Of a DNA stretch of 64,000 nt, positions 25,713-52,237 are shown one piece after another. Position numbers and translations under genes: made by a program. The notes under the pieces are model-generated. The model was given only the letters and a program-made list of their open reading frames with translations. It had not been told where the DNA came from and did not search any database. Numbering within the stretch: the stretch's first letter is position 1; every line of letters starts with the position of its first letter. The stretch comes from Bacteroidaceae bacterium (GTDB lineage: Bacteria; Bacteroidota; Bacteroidia; Bacteroidales; Bacteroidaceae). The stretch lies in NCBI GenBank assembly GCA_045220575.1, contig JBGUVX010000032.1, positions 4,055 through 68,054 on the forward strand, in the 5' to 3' direction.

Positions 25713-28034
25713 ATGCTTATGAAAAAGATGAATTCTTGGCTGCTTGCCAGCCTGTTCATGGGAGCAATGGCATTCAGTGCTTGCTCCAGCAGTGACGACA
25801 CTCCGAGTGGCGGTACCACTCCCAGCGTTCAGCCTGGTACACCCGTCAACCCTGCCAACATGAAGATGTCGGCTCTGTCGGGTTTCGTTAAAGATGCTTA
25901 TGGATATGCCCTGAAGGATGTAGAAGTCATTTCAGGTACAGAGACCACAAAGACCGATGCCAATGGTGGTTTCGTTCTGAACAGCGTGAACGCGCAGAAC
26001 GGCCGTACCGTTGTAAAGTTCCAGAAGGATGGCTACATGGAAATCGTGCGTGCTGCCGAGAAAGTAGACGGCGACGTATGGGAAGTTGTTATGGTTTCCA
26101 CTTGGGATACCGATATTGCCCTGAATCAAGCCTATTCTACGTCAAGTACAGGTCTTAGCAAGAACGGTATGTCGGTTAATTTGCAGGCCGATGGCTACAA
26201 GGTTGATGCCACAGGTTCTGCATTCAGCGGTCTGGTTAACCAGCAGATGTTGTATCTGAGTCCCGACAAAGAGAACTTTGGCGAGATGATGCCCGGTGGC
26301 GACTTGGCAGCTGTACGTAGCGGTGAGAACGGTGGTACTGCTGGCGAGCAGGTACAGCTCATTTCCTACGGTATGACCAAGGTTGACCTGACGGATGTTG
26401 CAAGCGGTCAGAAGCTGCAGTTGGCTGACGGCAAGCCCGCAACCCTGACTTTCCCCGTTCCTGAGAAGTTCAAGGACAACACTCCCGCTGAGATTCCCCT
26501 CTGGAGCTTCAACGAGACCACGGGTCTGTGGGAAGAGGAAGGTATTGCCACATACGATGCTGGTCAAAATGTTTACGTAGGTACTGTAACCCACTTCTCT
26601 TGGGTTAACCTCGACTATCCCGAAAGACGTGTTACCCTGAAGGTTATCGTGAAGGACGCAAATGGCAACGTAGTGCCCAACGTAAAGGTGGACATCGATG
26701 GTCAGAAGAACATCACCACCAACAACAAGGGTGAGGCCGAGACTTATGTGCCCAGAGCTACCGATTTCTATGTAACTATTCACTCTGAGGACTATGCCAA
26801 CTACCCCAACGAGGTGAAGGTTGAGGTTGAGCCTCTGTACGAGGACAAGACCGTCACCATCGAACTGCCCACGCTGGCACACATCAGCGGTAAGATTATC
26901 AACAAGGGCGAGGGTGGCAACATTGCTACTGTCTGGATTGAATACAACGGCAAGTCAACCAAGAAGGTGCACAGCGACGTCAATGGTCAGTTCTATCTGA
27001 ATGCACCTGCTGACTACGAGGGTGTAGCCGTACTGAAGGTTCGCACGGGCGACGGCAAGACCAAGTCCATCAACCTCGAGCTCAACGGCAAGGACCAGGC
27101 CTTCGAAATCACCGTCAACAGCGCAGTTGGCAACGGTGGAGCTGTCCAGCTCAAGTACCAAGATAAGACTTGGGACCTGACCATCGATCCTATAGATGAT
27201 GACGAACTGTATGGTGCTACCATCTTGGACGACGAATTCTATATCGAGCCCAACGAGCACCGTCAGGGTCAGGAGATAGACTGGGAAAAGGGTATCATCA
27301 TGTTCTACACAAGAATTGAGAAATTCAAGGACGGCGTAGCCCGCTACGACAGCATCGACTTTGGTGTTAACCGTCATGGTGGAGAATACGTTAGTGCAAA
27401 CGGCAGCGGTGCCGGTACGGTTACGAAGAGTGGCGACACGTATCGCATCCAGGCTGAAGTAAATGCACTCATCTACGCTGATGGTATTGAAAGTAGCGGC
27501 AAGAACGAAACCAACGGCACCATGAAGGTAGACGTGAGCATACCGTTGCTGTATAAGGCTGTTACCAAGAAGAACGTGAAGGCCGCTGACGTACCCAGCT
27601 TCGTTACCCTGCTTTCCGGTCGCAGCAACATTGCCGCCGTCATTACCGAAAGTGCTAAACTGGGTAAGGGCTGCTCTATTGTCTACGGCGACAGTACGCT
27701 GACCAGCAAAGACTTCAATACACTGAAGGAGGCTGCCAAGAAGCAGTTTGGCGAACCCATGTACGACTCGAACGCCGGTGGTCGCGAAGTAAGTGACGAC
27801 AACTATCAGGAAGTCAAGTTCTTCAAGGATGGCAAATATCTGTTTATAGCCTATAATCCTTGGGATAAGTGGGCAGACGAAGATTTAGATAACGTATATT
27901 TCAACTTCAACTATCCCAACGGACGCATCGGCATCATCGCTCTTCCTGCTGTAACCGTTCCCATTTCTGCCCTTGACTACTATGTAAAGGCAGAGCGCAA
28001 GGACTGGCAGCCCGTTTGGAGCAAGCGCAAGTAA
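25713..28034 (+). CDS. Large surface lipoprotein with carboxypeptidase-regulatory-like beta-sandwich repeats
   Basis: Lipobox (MAFSACSSSDD). Repeated G.V.D..G..L..V....T..TD.NG.F segments. 773 aa. Confidence 0.65.
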   Translation: MLMKKMNSWLLASLFMGAMAFSACSSSDDTPSGGTTPSVQPGTPVNPANMKMSALSGFVKDAYGYALKDVEVISGTETTKTDANGGFVLNSVNAQNGRTVVKFQKDGYMEIVRAAEKVDGDVWEVVMVSTWDTDIALNQAYSTSSTGLSKNGMSVNLQADGYKVDATGSAFSGLVNQQMLYLSPDKENFGEMMPGGDLAAVRSGENGGTAGEQVQLISYGMTKVDLTDVASGQKLQLADGKPATLTFPVPEKFKDNTPAEIPLWSFNETTGLWEEEGIATYDAGQNVYVGTVTHFSWVNLDYPERRVTLKVIVKDANGNVVPNVKVDIDGQKNITTNNKGEAETYVPRATDFYVTIHSEDYANYPNEVKVEVEPLYEDKTVTIELPTLAHISGKIINKGEGGNIATVWIEYNGKSTKKVHSDVNGQFYLNAPADYEGVAVLKVRTGDGKTKSINLELNGKDQAFEITVNSAVGNGGAVQLKYQDKTWDLTIDPIDDDELYGATILDDEFYIEPNEHRQGQEIDWEKGIIMFYTRIEKFKDGVARYDSIDFGVNRHGGEYVSANGSGAGTVTKSGDTYRIQAEVNALIYADGIESSGKNETNGTMKVDVSIPLLYKAVTKKNVKAADVPSFVTLLSGRSNIAAVITESAKLGKGCSIVYGDSTLTSKDFNTLKEAAKKQFGEPMYDSNAGGREVSDDNYQEVKFFKDGKYLFIAYNPWDKWADEDLDNVYFNFNYPNGRIGIIALPAVTVPISALDYYVKAERKDWQPVWSKRK

Positions 28035-28227
28035 AAAATATCATTAACTCTTGTTTATAGTGAGAGGGGGGTGTTCCTTAGTGGGCATCCCCTTCTTCGT
28101 GCCCTTTGGTCAGGGTGCGGAAGGGATAAGGACGAACGACTGGTCTGCCGTGCCTCGGCTCGAAGCGTGCCGACATCTTCACGAAGACGACGCATTGACT
28201 CCCAGACAGCGACAGGACGTTCAGGAA

Positions 28228-28319
28228 AGTGCCATAGTATGAAACTACCCAGTGCCATAGTATGGTACCAAGTAGTGCCATAGTATGGAACAGCCCAGTA
28301 CCATAGTATGGCACTTTTG
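28228..28319. repeat. Four 23-bp phased units with the palindromic core GTGCCATAGTATGG(C/T)AC
   Basis: AGTGCCATAGTATG starts at 28228, 28251 and 28274; AGTACCATAGTATG starts at 28297. The next unit contains ACGACGTGTTGC (28323-28334) and a GCGAAGC-TAC-GCTTCGC hairpin. Confidence 0.9.
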
Positions 28320-28413
28320 GGAACGACGTGTTGCTATAAGCGAAGCTACGCTTCGCATAACGGTTCGGCACAAAATAAGTTGAAAGACGGAAGCCGAAAT
28401 AGAAAGTTTTTTG

Positions 28414-28421
28414 TAATTTTG
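28414..28421 (+). promoter_or_regulatory. -7 box TAATTTTG for xerD
   Basis: Perfect TAnnTTTG, 6 nt before the ATG at 28428. Confidence 0.5.
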
Positions 28422-28427
28422 TAAGCG

Positions 28428-29351
28428 ATGAGGACGAGAATCGTTTACAACAACGCCGTGCCTGCTGCCATCCTGCGGCGCTACGAGCAATACCTGAGAC
28501 TGGAGAAATCGTTCTCCGTCAACACGCTCGACGCCTACCTTCGCGACCTGCAGAAGCTCATCAACTTCTATGCACAGCGAGGCATCGACTTCCGCACAGT
28601 TACCCTTCAGCAAATCGACCAGTTTGCCGGCACGCTGCTCGACAGCGGAGTGACGCAGAAGACCATCGCCCGCATCCTGGCTGGCGTGCGTTCGTTCTAC
28701 AAGTTCCTGCTGTTGGAAAAGGAGATAGAGACCGACCCTACGGAGCTGTTGCCTTTTCCCAAGCGAGGTCTCTATCTACCAGAGGTGCTTTCCCTCGATG
28801 AAATCGACCGAATTGAGAAAATCATAGACATTTCGAAGGAGGAGGGCGTGCGCGACCGTGCCATCGTGGAAACGCTGTACAGCTGTGGGTTGCGCGTGTC
28901 GGAGCTTTGCAACCTCACCTTCTCGAACCTGTTTCTGGAGGAAGGCTACATCCACGTGCGCGGCAAGGGTAACAAGGACCGCCTCGTACCCATCTCACAG
29001 ACCGCCATCGACGAACTGCGACGCTGGTTCGTCACACGGCAGGGCATCAACGTGAAGCCGGGCGAGGAGGATTTTGTCTTCATCACAAAGCGAGGCAGTC
29101 GCATGAGTCGCATCACCGTCTTCCACAACATCAAGCAATACGCCCAGGCGGCAGGCATCCAGAAAGAAATCTCGCCCCACACCTTCCGACACTCCTTTGC
29201 CACCCACCTGCTGGAACGCGGCGCAAACCTGAGCGGCGTGCGAGCCATGCTGGGGCACGAAAACATCTCAACAACAGAAATTTACCTACATCTCAACCGT
29301 CAACACCTGCGCGAGGAAATCCTCACCTGCCACCCCCGTAACAAGAAATAA
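28428..29351 (+). CDS. xerD: Tyrosine site-specific recombinase XerD
   Basis: 307 aa with SAM-like N-domain motifs (NTLDAYLRDL). The catalytic region has ...GLRVSEL..., HTFRHSFATHLLERGANL, LGHENISTTEIYLH. Confidence 0.88.
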   Translation: MRTRIVYNNAVPAAILRRYEQYLRLEKSFSVNTLDAYLRDLQKLINFYAQRGIDFRTVTLQQIDQFAGTLLDSGVTQKTIARILAGVRSFYKFLLLEKEIETDPTELLPFPKRGLYLPEVLSLDEIDRIEKIIDISKEEGVRDRAIVETLYSCGLRVSELCNLTFSNLFLEEGYIHVRGKGNKDRLVPISQTAIDELRRWFVTRQGINVKPGEEDFVFITKRGSRMSRITVFHNIKQYAQAAGIQKEISPHTFRHSFATHLLERGANLSGVRAMLGHENISTTEIYLHLNRQHLREEILTCHPRNKK

Positions 29352-29381
29352 ATCGTGGGCTGCAGGCGGGCTGGTTTCTTG

Positions 29382-30404
29382 CTAATAAGGCTTGCGGTAG
29401 CGGTCCTCGTCCTTGTCGTCGAGCATTCCTAAATAAGAGGTATAGCGGCTCTGGGCGATGCGTCCCTCCTCCAAGGCCTGCAGGACGGCGCAGCCAGGTT
29501 CGTGGGTGTGGGTGCAGTCCTGGAAACGGCACTCCTGCCCGATAGTGAAGATTTCGCGGAAATAATGTCCCACCTCCGTGCGTTCGATGTCGAAGGTGCC
29601 AAAGCCCTTGATGCCCGGCGTGTCGATGAGACTGCCGCCCGTTGGCAGGTCGAAGAGTTCGCTGTAGGTGGTGGTGTGCTGCCCGGTATCGTGGGAAAGG
29701 CTGATTTCCTCCGTTCGCGCCTTCAAGCCGGGAATGAGGGCATTCAGCAGCGTGCTCTTGCCCACACCGCTGTTTCCGCTCAGCAGGGTGGTCTTGTCGC
29801 AGAGCAACTGGGTAAGCGGCGCTATTCCCTCGCCCGTAAGTGCCGAGCAGGGCACGCAGGTATAGCCAATTGCGCTATACAGCTCCACCAGTTGACGCAT
29901 GCGATTCTGCGCCATTTCATCATAAATATCGGTCTTGTTGAAGACCAGGATGACAGGCACCCTGTAGGCCTCTGCAGTAGCGAGGAAACGGTCAACAAAG
30001 GTGGTGCTGGTTTCCGGGTGGGCAATGGTGACGAGCAGCAGCACCTGGTCGACATTGGCAGCCAGGATGTGGCTTTGCTTAGAAAGGTTCGAGGCCTTGC
30101 GGATGATGTAGTTACGACGGTCGCAGATGTCGGTTATCAGCCCGACAAGTTCTGAGTTCAAAGTGCTGAGTGCTGAGTTTCCGCTGCCATTAGACGTTGA
30201 ATCCTCCGAACTCTGAACTCCCAACTCCGAACTGGCCGCAATATTAGCGGCCTTAAATACTACCCTGTCGCCCACGGCAACAGGATTGGTGCTGCGAATG
30301 CCGCGAAGGCGGAAGTTGCCCTTCACCTTGCACGAAAAAAGCTGGTCGTCGTCCGTGCGGACAACGTACCAGCTTCCTGTGTTCTTGATGACTGTACCAA
30401 TCAT
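29382..30404 (-). CDS. rsgA: Ribosome small-subunit-dependent GTPase A, with a 28-aa in-frame repeat insertion in the OB domain
   Basis: OB domain (VAVGDRV), circularly permuted GTPase motifs ([19 protein letters not shown]) and a Zn knuckle ([16 protein letters not shown]). The extra segment [28 protein letters not shown] is encoded by 30149-30232. Confidence 0.9.
30149..30232. repeat. 84-bp palindromic heptamer element inserted in frame in rsgA
   Basis: Left arm GTTCTGA GTTCAAA GTGCTGA GTGCTGA GTTTCCG. Right arm TCCGAAC TCTGAAC TCCCAAC TCCGAAC, which is the reverse complement of GTTCGGA/GTTGGGA/GTTCAGA words. 12x7 nt = 28 codons. Confidence 0.8.
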
Positions 30405-30964
30405 TAGACGGTCATGATTTCCTTCTCCTTGGCAGCGAGCAGGTCCTCAATCTTCTTGATGTACCTGTCGTGGAGCTTCTGCAGCTTGTCCTCGGCATCC
30501 TTCTCGGCATCCTCGGCAAGGCCGTCCTTCACGCCCTTCTTCAGTTTGTCGATAATCTCGCGACGACCGTTGCGCACGCTCACCTTGGCCTGTTCCTCCT
30601 CCTTGCCGCACTGCTTCACGAGCTGCTTACGACGCTCCTCCGTGAGAGGGGGAATGTTGATGCGAATGATTTCGCCGTTGTTCTCAGGCATAATGCCCAG
30701 GTCGCTGTCGATGATGGCCTTTTCGATGATGCGGAACATGCTCTTGTCCCAAGGCTTGATGGCAATGGTGCGGGCATCGGGAGTGTTCACGGCTGCCACA
30801 TTGTTCAGGGGAACCATAGAGCCGTAGCTGTCAACACGAATGTTATCCAGCAACTTAATGTTAGCCTTCCCGGCACGAATGCGAGCCAATGCATCCTCGA
30901 GATACATCACGGTTTCCTCGAAGCGCTCTTCCGCTTCGTTCAGAGTCTCTTTTACGTCTATCAT
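30404..30964 (-). CDS. frr: Ribosome recycling factor
   Basis: 186 aa with typical RRF sequence ([22 protein letters not shown]...[14 protein letters not shown]). TAATG overlap with rsgA. Confidence 0.95.
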
Positions 30965-51936: not shown

Positions 51937-52017
51937 GAAAATATTTGCGAATTGTGCATTATGAATCCCGCTTTATTTATGGATTAGGTCTTAATCAACG
52001 TGAGTTCTTGGACAAGG

Positions 52018-52237
52018 CGACGTGTTGTTAACGATAAGACGACGTGTCGTATCCTTCGAAGCGACGTGTCGTTAGTTTAAAAGGATAATTATCCGACATC
52101 GATAGGATAATTATCCGATGGCATTAACATAATTATCCGTTTGTGATAGGATAATTATCCTGTTTTGAAAAGATAATTGCACGAGTAAAGCAACGATACG
52201 TCGCTTGGAGGCAAACAACGTGTCGCTCCGCCTGTTT
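52018..52237. repeat. Ten contiguous 22-bp phased units: 3x CGACGTGT(C/T)G, 5x (G)GATAATTATCC-type, 2x ACGT(G)TCGC-type
   Basis: Units start at 52018, 52040, 52062, 52084, 52106, 52128, 52150, 52172, 52194 and 52216. The perfect 12-bp palindrome GGATAATTATCC occurs at 52083, 52105 and 52149, with degenerate copies at 52127 and 52171. Confidence 0.9.

Follow-up and report, generated by a model that had tools for sequence, protein, structure and literature searches.

Whether a cluster of phased palindromes that lies shortly upstream of a recombinase gene serves that gene, or is one member of something larger, is the question raised by an intergenic spacer in the genome of a Bacteroidaceae bacterium (assembly GCA_045220575.1, here G000). 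The spacer (28035-28427, 393 bp) separates the gene for a 773-aa lipoprotein from xerD and is part of a stretch of 64,000 nucleotides, called the window throughout (G000:C32:4055-68054, where G and C stand for genome and contig; L denotes an extracted locus and P a metagenome homologue). It contains four 17-bp palindromes with an exact 23-bp period. We conclude that this array very probably belongs to a family of phased palindromes that is linked to genes of the protein family DUF6078 and is undescribed in the literature. The DUF6078 protein itself is, with moderate confidence, the putative reader of the array.

The palindromes, of the form GTGCCATA-G-TATGGCAC, occupy 28229-28314 and have their centres at 28237, 28260, 28283 and 28306. 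The repeated word AGTGCCATAGTATG starts at 28228, 28251 and 28274 and is followed by AGTACCATAGTATG, which starts at 28297; Tandem Repeats Finder (TRF) reports 28228-28311 with a period of 23, 3.7 copies and a score of 105. When the motif GTRCCATAGTATGG was searched with up to two mismatches, the window gave seven matches, all of them inside the array, where 0.5 would be expected and none of 100 shuffles reached seven. The preliminary description of this DNA had reported the four palindromes and their period, which sequence reading, TRF and motif scan all bear out, and had seen in them a dyad suited to a dimeric binder. This is supported in appearance. The inner 11 bp (CCATAGTATGG) are kept intact in units 2-4, with unit 1 ending in ...TATGA instead, and the outer arms are imperfect across the units (GAAAC, GGTAC, GGAAC, GGCAC).

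Two further units bracket the array, the left one of which (GCGACAGGACGTTC, 28209-28222) had been overlooked. It agrees at 11 of 14 positions with the right flank unit (GAACGACGTGTTGC) read as reverse complement, each flank unit is 21.5 bp away from the centre of the nearest palindrome, and in a self BLAST comparison 28188-28355 matches its own reverse complement at 68% identity. As these inverted flank units bracket the four palindromes in phase, the whole element is a symmetric six-unit composite of ~126 bp (28209-28334). Folded as a single strand, the composite is predicted to form a single extended hairpin in which the inverted flanks pair with each other (-74.8 kcal/mol, z = -9). The preliminary description had also assigned to this region a 12-mer in common with an array at 52018; a 10-mer (CGACGTGTTG; 28324-28333 = 52018-52027) is indeed common to both, the full 12-mer is not. 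A scan of the window against Rfam matched no family, scans of the spacer for sigma-70 promoters and intrinsic terminators found none (the promoter scan does not cover Bacteroidota promoters), and a search for the same locus in metagenomes of the Joint Genome Institute (JGI) via the right junction gave no match. The features of the locus are listed here, the two genes being given for context only.

28209-28222, no strand: flanking ACG unit on the left, GCGACAGGACGTTC, which repeats the right-hand one in inverted orientation (self reverse-complement BLAST and direct reading)
28229-28245, + strand: palindrome unit 1, GTGCCATAGTATGAAAC (sequence reading, TRF, motif scan, as for the other three)
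28252-28268, + strand: palindrome unit 2, GTGCCATAGTATGGTAC
28275-28291, + strand: palindrome unit 3, GTGCCATAGTATGGAAC
28298-28314, + strand: palindrome unit 4, GTACCATAGTATGGCAC
28321-28334, no strand: right flanking ACG(TG) unit GAACGACGTGTTGC, phased with the array and akin to the GCGACGTGTCGC units found beside other arrays, among them that at 52016-52075
28340-28356, no strand: small hairpin GCGAAGC-TAC-GCTTCGC, found next to the array as previously described and not part of the repeat family (sequence reading, fold prediction)
28416-28423, + strand: -7-like box of the xerD promoter, TAATTTTG (comparison with the xerD upstream regions of G001 and G019)
28428-29351, + strand: xerD-like tyrosine recombinase gene (Phage_integrase 7.6e-50, Phage_int_SAM_1 2.9e-21)
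25713-28034, + strand: gene for the 773-aa lipoprotein with CarboxypepD_reg and Big_1 domains (open reading frame list, domain search)

The link to DUF6078 emerged from the neighbours of the arrays in relatives. In another genome, G001, an array on contig C43 begins ~10 bp past the stop codon of a 168-aa, cysteine-rich open reading frame that Pfam assigns to DUF6078 (PF19555, 6.5e-37). G000 has a paralogue (C38:64621-65064, 35% identical), which is followed by three units of another palindrome, TTCCCA-N4-TGGGAA, at 22 bp. All six DUF6078 genes of G000, G001, G019 and G023 precede 3-4 phased palindromes. Arrays of the core studied here, which we call home arrays where they follow a DUF6078 gene, are present in G001:C43, G019:C13, G023:C12, G257/G227:C65 and G230:C49, each with 3-4 units within ~10-40 bp, and the stop codons of the metagenome homologues P0003 (74% identity), L141 (72%), P0010 (58%) and P0008 (48%) are likewise followed by 3-4 units of this core with a 23-bp period. 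The more distant P0014 (43% identity), which does not have the basic C-terminal tail described below, is followed by TTTATCAC-N4-GTGATAAA at 22 bp instead.

This arrangement extends to the wider family. Among 35 DUF6078 genes sampled from 150 Bacteroidaceae genomes, 24 are followed, within 250 bp of the stop codon, by an array with a period of 20-24 bp (TRF, at least 2.5 copies). As controls, the 250 bp upstream contained an array in one of 35 cases, and a more distant stretch 600-850 bp downstream in none of 32. TRF was used here as strict chaining of perfect-arm palindromes proved too stringent (11 of 35), and several further DUF6078 genes show degenerate arrays by eye. Each paralogue has a private half-site, mostly of the form xTxxCA-N4-6-TGxxAx. 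The subfamily that carries an extra basic tail (GFGSxHS...RT..RL) goes with a conserved 5-bp TAGTA centre and a 23-bp period, subfamilies without the tail with a 4-bp, non-conserved centre and a 22-bp period; from this correlation we infer that the tail may contact the TAGTA centre. Literature searches found no paper that mentions DUF6078 or PF19555, and one on Prevotella tandem palindromes gave nothing relevant.

Two observations on the neighbourhood of home arrays may be added. At G000 C38:64621-67322 and in L139 (P0014), the gene order is DUF6078, array and a gene for a 705-aa BT4734-like_N/VapE-like primase-helicase, an order that would be fitting for an integrated element with an iteron-like origin. 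Between G019:C13 (L074) and G023:C12 (L078), which belong to two species, the DUF6078 gene, its four-unit array and a downstream gene for a small membrane protein are ~98% identical over more than 450 bp, and the XerD proteins of G019 and G023 are only ~75% identical relative to G000; a recent horizontal transfer of the DUF6078-array module is suggested.

Arrays of the same core also occur away from any DUF6078 gene. The core of this dispersed family is xTGCCATA[G/C]TATGGCAx in 23-bp phased arrays. Besides the array upstream of xerD, G000 has a three-unit 23-bp array between the genes for a queA-like protein and a Zn-metalloprotease (DUF5117/DUF5118/DUF4953; C38:25799-25861), another between the genes for a CbiK-like protein and a TonB-dependent receptor (C31:102953-103015), and single sites at C34:60241, C20:52246 and C41:27748. 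The preliminary description had held that restriction of the motif to this locus, or its inclusion in a longer known repeat family, would refute its reading: the motif is not confined to the window, and the array is part of a wider repeat family, dispersed yet undescribed in the literature. When one genome per species was searched (185,579 species), phased pairs of CCATAGTATGG were found only in six metagenome-assembled genomes (MAGs) of rumen Bacteroidaceae and in one unrelated-looking match.

The array between the queA-like and metalloprotease genes has been kept in G000, G001, RGIG10155 and RUG14659; conservation is confined to its cores, both the spacers and the remaining intergenic DNA having diverged. 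Since the cores have been kept in four species while the spacers drift, neutral decay is a poorer explanation than selection or concerted evolution, and the cores would appear to be under purifying selection. Whole arrays are gained or lost as blocks, as seen for an array on C18 of G001, in place of which G000 has an empty spacer of 49 bp. The outermost bases read GTGCC in G000, G001 and P0003, and CTGCC or TTGCC in G019, G023, G257 and P0010, and within one genome they agree between home and away copies. As to individual loci, the queA-like open reading frame ends inside the first array unit in both G000 and G001 (G000 C38:25830-25861; L069:4002-4009), its stop codon being the TAG within CCATAGTATGG. 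In RGIG3567 (L079, L080, L090) a variant has two TTCCCATAGTATGGGAA units followed by TTCCCACGCGTGGGAA, with unaltered arms but CGCG instead of TAGTA as the centre; to judge from this variant, arms and centre vary as separate modules.

Two ideas suggested by the neighbours of these sites were rejected. A metal regulon (Fur-like, 7-1-7) might be proposed from the Zn-protease, CbiK and TonB genes, but the neighbours in other genomes are unrelated and some arrays lie between convergent genes. A small ribbon-helix-helix (RHH) gene beside the single site at C34:60241 has a weak RHH_5 match (E = 0.0035) and does not recur in other genomes.

Gene and arrays also co-occur across the genus, with G000 as an exception. 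A close orthologue of the G001 DUF6078 protein (49-100% identity) is present in exactly five of 121 genus genomes (G001, G019, G023, G230 and G257), the next-best matches having at most 40% identity, and multi-copy TGCCATAGTATGGCA sites are present in exactly six: the five orthologue carriers and G000. The remaining genomes have 0-2 scattered matches with one mismatch. Arrays are thus found in five of five carriers and in one of 116 genomes without the orthologue, this being G000, the assembly of which is 93.55% complete. The genomes G053, G051, G066 and G044, which are similarly distant from G000 by XerD identity, have neither the gene nor the arrays; the pattern is therefore, as far as these comparisons go, not simply that of one clade, though related genomes are not independent samples.

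Both in G001 and on the contig of P0003, the cognate DUF6078 gene comes after a diacylglycerol-kinase (DAGK) gene. The corresponding Crp-miaA-DAGK block of G000 (C46:6274-8633) is contiguous and is followed by 110 bp without an array and then by a convergent gene for a 702-aa protein. The cognate gene is missing from its syntenic place and appears to have been lost, with a copy elsewhere being possible given the completeness of the assembly. Because the gene is absent from this contiguous site, the array upstream of xerD is probably an orphan away copy, either a recent relic or a site that is read by another protein. At one orthologous spacer (G000 C1:76636-76753; G001 C22, L071:3979-4042), G001 has one GTGCCATAGTATGGCAC unit with the TAGTA centre, whereas G000 has three TTCCCA-N4-TGGGAA units, and the ACGTC/ACGTG units on the flanks are conserved in both. 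By this comparison, the array type has been swapped in place, and matches in each case the genome's own DUF6078 type.

Proteins of the DUF6078 subfamily that goes with the studied core have 168-198 aa, four invariant cysteines and a basic C-terminal tail, and all 25 homologues collected are annotated as hypothetical. The invariant residues are C17, C22, C28, C57, L29, P49, A69, G71 and Q116; the alignment shows no invariant His-U-His, Tyr, Asp/Glu or Ser/Lys position. A confident AlphaFold2 model (pLDDT 87.9, pTM 0.77) gave, for its helical part, repeated weak Foldseek matches to helix-turn-helix (HTH) proteins of the Xre/cI type (BldD, TP901-1 CI, lambda repressor, DdrO, HigA and HipB) over ~55-60 residues with a root-mean-square deviation (rmsd) of 3.6-4.4 Å, and in BFVD matches to small HTH-like phage proteins (best E = 0.087, TMt 0.54). 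The top rows in the PDB were TnpA proteins of IS200/IS605, which we regard as noise (E at least 0.19, TM ~0.2, rmsd ~10 Å). A zinc-stabilised DNA-binding protein is plausible from the model. A relation to RAYT, the transposases associated with repetitive extragenic palindromes (REP), was considered and rejected: there is no conserved HUH motif or Tyr, Pfam gives only PF19555, and the TnpA fold matches are not significant.

The array upstream of xerD is embedded in a much larger set of phased repeats. In the 2.7-Mb assembly of G000, TRF rows number 6 for a period of 20 bp, 39 for 21 bp, 59 for 22 bp, 57 for 23 bp and 9 for 24 bp; merged, they give ~136 loci with a period of 21-23 bp and a dozen or more distinct palindromic cores, such as GGAATAGTAATCC, GCGATAGTATCGC, CATGACCGTAGTCATG, GGATAATTATCC, GCGACGTGTCGC and CCATCGGCGATGG. 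The iteron-like geometry that had been proposed for the four palindromes, which places units about two helical turns apart as in iterons or operators, is, by this peak, a real and constrained feature. As the period stays at about two helical turns whatever the length of the core, it argues for a constraint exerted on duplex DNA. Of 131 arrays, 16 have a unit resembling GCGACGTGTCGC no more than 45 bp away, compared with 2.2% of control intergenic windows. By class of spacer, 51 loci are between tandem, 29 between divergent and 7 between convergent genes, approximately as expected from the share of spacer bases in each class. Often two or three different arrays stand in series within one spacer (window 52016-52232; contig C32 396-562), and several G000 contigs begin or end inside such arrays.

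A second protein family is also accompanied by private arrays. In G000, the upstream DNA is assembled for five HU-HIG (PF18291) genes, and every one of them has a four-unit phased array there, each with a different core (C26:13088-13185, C20:110414-110521, C51:34090-34160, C1:67538-67613 and C34:43950-44150). One of these cores is TAGTA-centred (AAGCTTAGTAAGGTT), and none is the core studied here. Four other HU-HIG genes are located exactly at contig ends. G000 has 14 HU-HIG matches in total, about as many as there are array families.

Of the possible readings of these data, we favour one in which the array upstream of xerD is an away copy of a dispersed 23-bp palindrome family that has its home copy right after the stop codon of a DUF6078 gene. 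The DUF6078 protein would read each 17-bp dyad as a dimer, and with a spacing of about two helical turns from unit to unit, three to five dimers would come to lie on one face of the DNA and could form a short cooperative nucleoprotein block. The lambda repressor provides a precedent, with cooperative cI dimers on three 17-bp operators spaced 23-24 bp apart. Placing the home cluster beside its own gene would correspond to the arrangement in repressor-operator, Rep-iteron, ParB-parS or RAYT-REP pairs. The away arrays are found upstream of genes, just past stop codons and sometimes between convergent genes, positions to which an insulating, roadblock or chromosome-organising role would be better suited than that of a classical promoter operator. 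Binding, dimer stoichiometry and effects on neighbouring genes, be it insulation, roadblock or regulation, are what we infer from this arrangement, and our confidence in any specific cellular role is low. More tentatively, and with slightly more doubt than conviction, we propose that DUF6078 could be a Bacteroidales-wide family of dimeric, sequence-specific readers, built from a four-Cys zinc module and an HTH-like domain, that has co-diversified with dispersed phased operators, giving a private code that is not the same from one paralogue or species to the next; sites would be swapped when the reader changes, and the array at xerD would be an orphaned code word that has outlasted its reader.

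Several observations weigh against DUF6078 as the reader. The ~136 arrays of many cores stand against one DUF6078 gene in G000, and HU-HIG genes carry arrays as well; therefore, other readers must exist. G000 is without the cognate subfamily, its sole DUF6078 gene having a TTCCCA-N4-TGGGAA home array, yet its copies of the studied core are well kept, and RUG14659 is another such case, an away array being present in its assembly and the cognate gene absent from it. Gene and home array are physically linked, so that part of the co-variation may be plain co-inheritance. Some arrays of G001 lie between convergent genes, a poor fit to a simple promoter-operator role. As to the protein, no significant fold relative was found (best Foldseek E 0.19 in the PDB and 0.087 in BFVD), the resemblance to HTH domains spans only ~55 residues, and profile searches of PDB sequences and Pfam returned nothing besides PF19555.

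The neighbouring gene offers an alternative, and the preliminary description had proposed a recombinase accessory or regulatory array, or else a relic origin or partition site. The position is as had been described, the four units lying 97-188 bp upstream of the promoter box TAATTTTG (70-190 bp had been given), the geometry is iteron-like, and the home array of other DUF6078 paralogues lies just upstream of a VapE-like primase-helicase gene. Furthermore, xerD of G023 has, in a similar place, a four-unit array with a 22-bp period, formed by a different palindrome (AACCAGTCACTGGTT); it lies ~170-260 bp upstream of the gene (L043, G023:C15), and an ACGTG-containing unit comes after it. Of 30 xerD orthologues of the genus, 28 have no such array; G023 is the one other case, and the array studied here is upstream of xerD in G000 alone. 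The same pair of lipoprotein gene and xerD is present in G019 with a short spacer and without an array. Upstream of xerD, G000, G001 and G019 share a conserved promoter stretch (TTTTTTGTAAYTTTG); it lies outside the array, and the last two genomes have no array. Most xerD orthologues have runs of 7-bp tandem repeats (e.g. AAGTTCA, TAATTCT, AAAGATT) just upstream of the promoter and no 22-23-bp array (L038, L047, L050, L054-L060). The check that had been proposed, whether other copies also adjoin tyrosine recombinase genes, gave a negative answer: among ~20 arrays of the same core in seven genomes only the window copy does, the others having as neighbours genes for a Zn-metalloprotease, a TonB receptor, cargo of the type IX secretion system (T9SS), rpsO and DUF6078. 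Nor does the surrounding DNA resemble an origin or partition site. No DnaA box was found in 26905-30546 (~1.3 kb around the array), GC content around the array is 0.465-0.545 with no AT-rich unwinding stretch, no dif-like site with an 11-6-11 core was found near the array, and its neighbours in the window (the lipoprotein gene, xerD, rsgA and frr) include no rep or par gene. A role specific to xerD is rejected on the basis of the 30 orthologous upstream regions, and the distribution has already largely refuted the recombinase and origin proposals together, which we consider extremely improbable. On these comparisons the array is not a control or recombination site of xerD and should not be annotated as such.

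Three further explanations do without xerD. The arrays might be selfish or neutral hairpin-forming elements, comparable to MITEs (miniature transposable elements with inverted repeats), REPINs or BrickBuilt, that are gained and lost in blocks, have no host function and came to lie at xerD by accident; this overlaps with the reading that we favour, as DUF6078 could be the cognate factor. The long hairpin with its inverted flanks would suit such an element, as would the presence or absence of whole blocks (the G001 C18 array and its empty counterpart in G000, the G019 xerD spacer), the arrays between convergent genes and a spread over spacer classes that follows the available bases; BrickBuilt is itself a dispersed 23-nt intergenic repeat with long stem-loops (PMC4596501). 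But neither terminal inverted repeats (TIRs) of the insertion sequence (IS) type nor a target-site duplication or transposase was found, DUF6078 has no conserved catalytic residues (only four Cys and L, P, A, G and Q are invariant), and G000 has only three arrays of the core. Conservation of cores at an orthologous site in four species and a strict 21-23-bp period across core lengths, which fits helical phasing of a duplex better than hairpins, also speak against this explanation, and we consider it unlikely. A function in RNA, where a tandem or long hairpin in the 3' untranslated region (UTR) of the lipoprotein mRNA or in a read-through transcript would act as terminator or stabiliser in the manner of REP or bacterial interspersed mosaic elements (BIMEs), could draw on the strong predicted fold, on the lack of a canonical intrinsic terminator in the xerD spacer and on the fact that many arrays, including all home arrays, start a few bases past a stop codon, the position of a terminator. 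It is nevertheless quite improbable, for the outer arms are conserved in an asymmetric, non-pairing form (e.g. GTTCC...GGCAC in at least eight G001 units), the inner sequence and not only its pairing is invariant across genomes, the period is 21-23 nt whatever the length of the stem, and Rfam gave no match. Similarly doubtful is a different reader such as an HU-HIG paralogue, with DUF6078 genes being merely favoured landing or target sites. The private arrays of HU-HIG genes, one of them TAGTA-centred, the rough agreement of 14 HU-HIG matches with the number of array families and the retention of TAGTA arrays in G000 without a cognate DUF6078 would be explained in this way. Yet no HU-HIG gene adjoins any array of the studied core in G000, G001, G019 or G023, the DUF6078 subfamily and the core are found together at nine of nine home loci and in five of five genomes, and Burroughs et al. 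(2017, PMC5499826) considered it improbable that HU-HIG proteins act as sequence-specific factors.

Although the Bacteroidales of gut and rumen count as some of the best-studied commensals, ~136 arrays in a genome of 2.7 Mb form an intergenic layer without a described function or reader. With one family of arrays tied to one DUF6078 subfamily, a pair of protein and DNA word is at hand that is directly testable. If binding proves true, DUF6078 would get a name and the common "mystery repeats" that break MAG assemblies would be explained, and natural orthogonal protein-operator pairs would be gained for Bacteroides genetics.

The arrangement is reminiscent of several known systems and agrees fully with none of them. 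It resembles in part the REP, BIME and REPIN-RAYT systems of Proteobacteria ("REPtrons"), namely in the dispersed intergenic palindromes, a single-copy gene beside one repeat, the patchy distribution and the single-strand hairpins. DUF6078, however, is not a Y1 HUH transposase (PF01797), having only PF19555 and no conserved His-U-His or Tyr, and where REP sequences form inverted doublets on both sides of their gene, the arrays described here run head-to-tail with a 21-23-bp period and accompany their gene on one side. They are direct arrays with inverted flank units, and number a handful of loci per genome rather than hundreds. BrickBuilt, a minisatellite or MITE of Porphyromonas gingivalis, resembles them, by its description, in consisting of dispersed intergenic 23-nt tandem units without spacers. 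It differs in having up to 22.8 units, compared with four here, and a leader (up to 285 nt) and tail (up to 318 nt) with IS5-like TIRs at their ends (GAGACCTTTGCA / TGCAAAGGTCTC) (Klein et al. 2015, PMC4596501), neither of which is present in 28035-28427, where 14-bp ACG flank units are found instead; no cognate protein has been proposed for BrickBuilt.

A likeness in geometry exists to the OR and OL operators of lambda and to the iterons of plasmids and phages. They have in common with the present arrays 17-bp dyads with a central base pair, 3-5 sites about two turns apart beside the gene for the presumed binder, and a protein with a weak Xre/cI-like HTH resemblance. Plasmid and phage iterons have a phasing of ~22 bp. 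In contrast to these, the present arrays lie downstream of the gene and not over its promoter, have extra copies around the chromosome and show no origin signature, and the protein belongs to a new family with an N-terminal four-cysteine module. Also comparable are the HU-HIG arrays of Bacteroidota, which are phased palindromes with a 21-23-bp period from the same genome, the core differing between paralogues; they are located upstream of their genes, unlike the home arrays of DUF6078, and none of them has the studied core.

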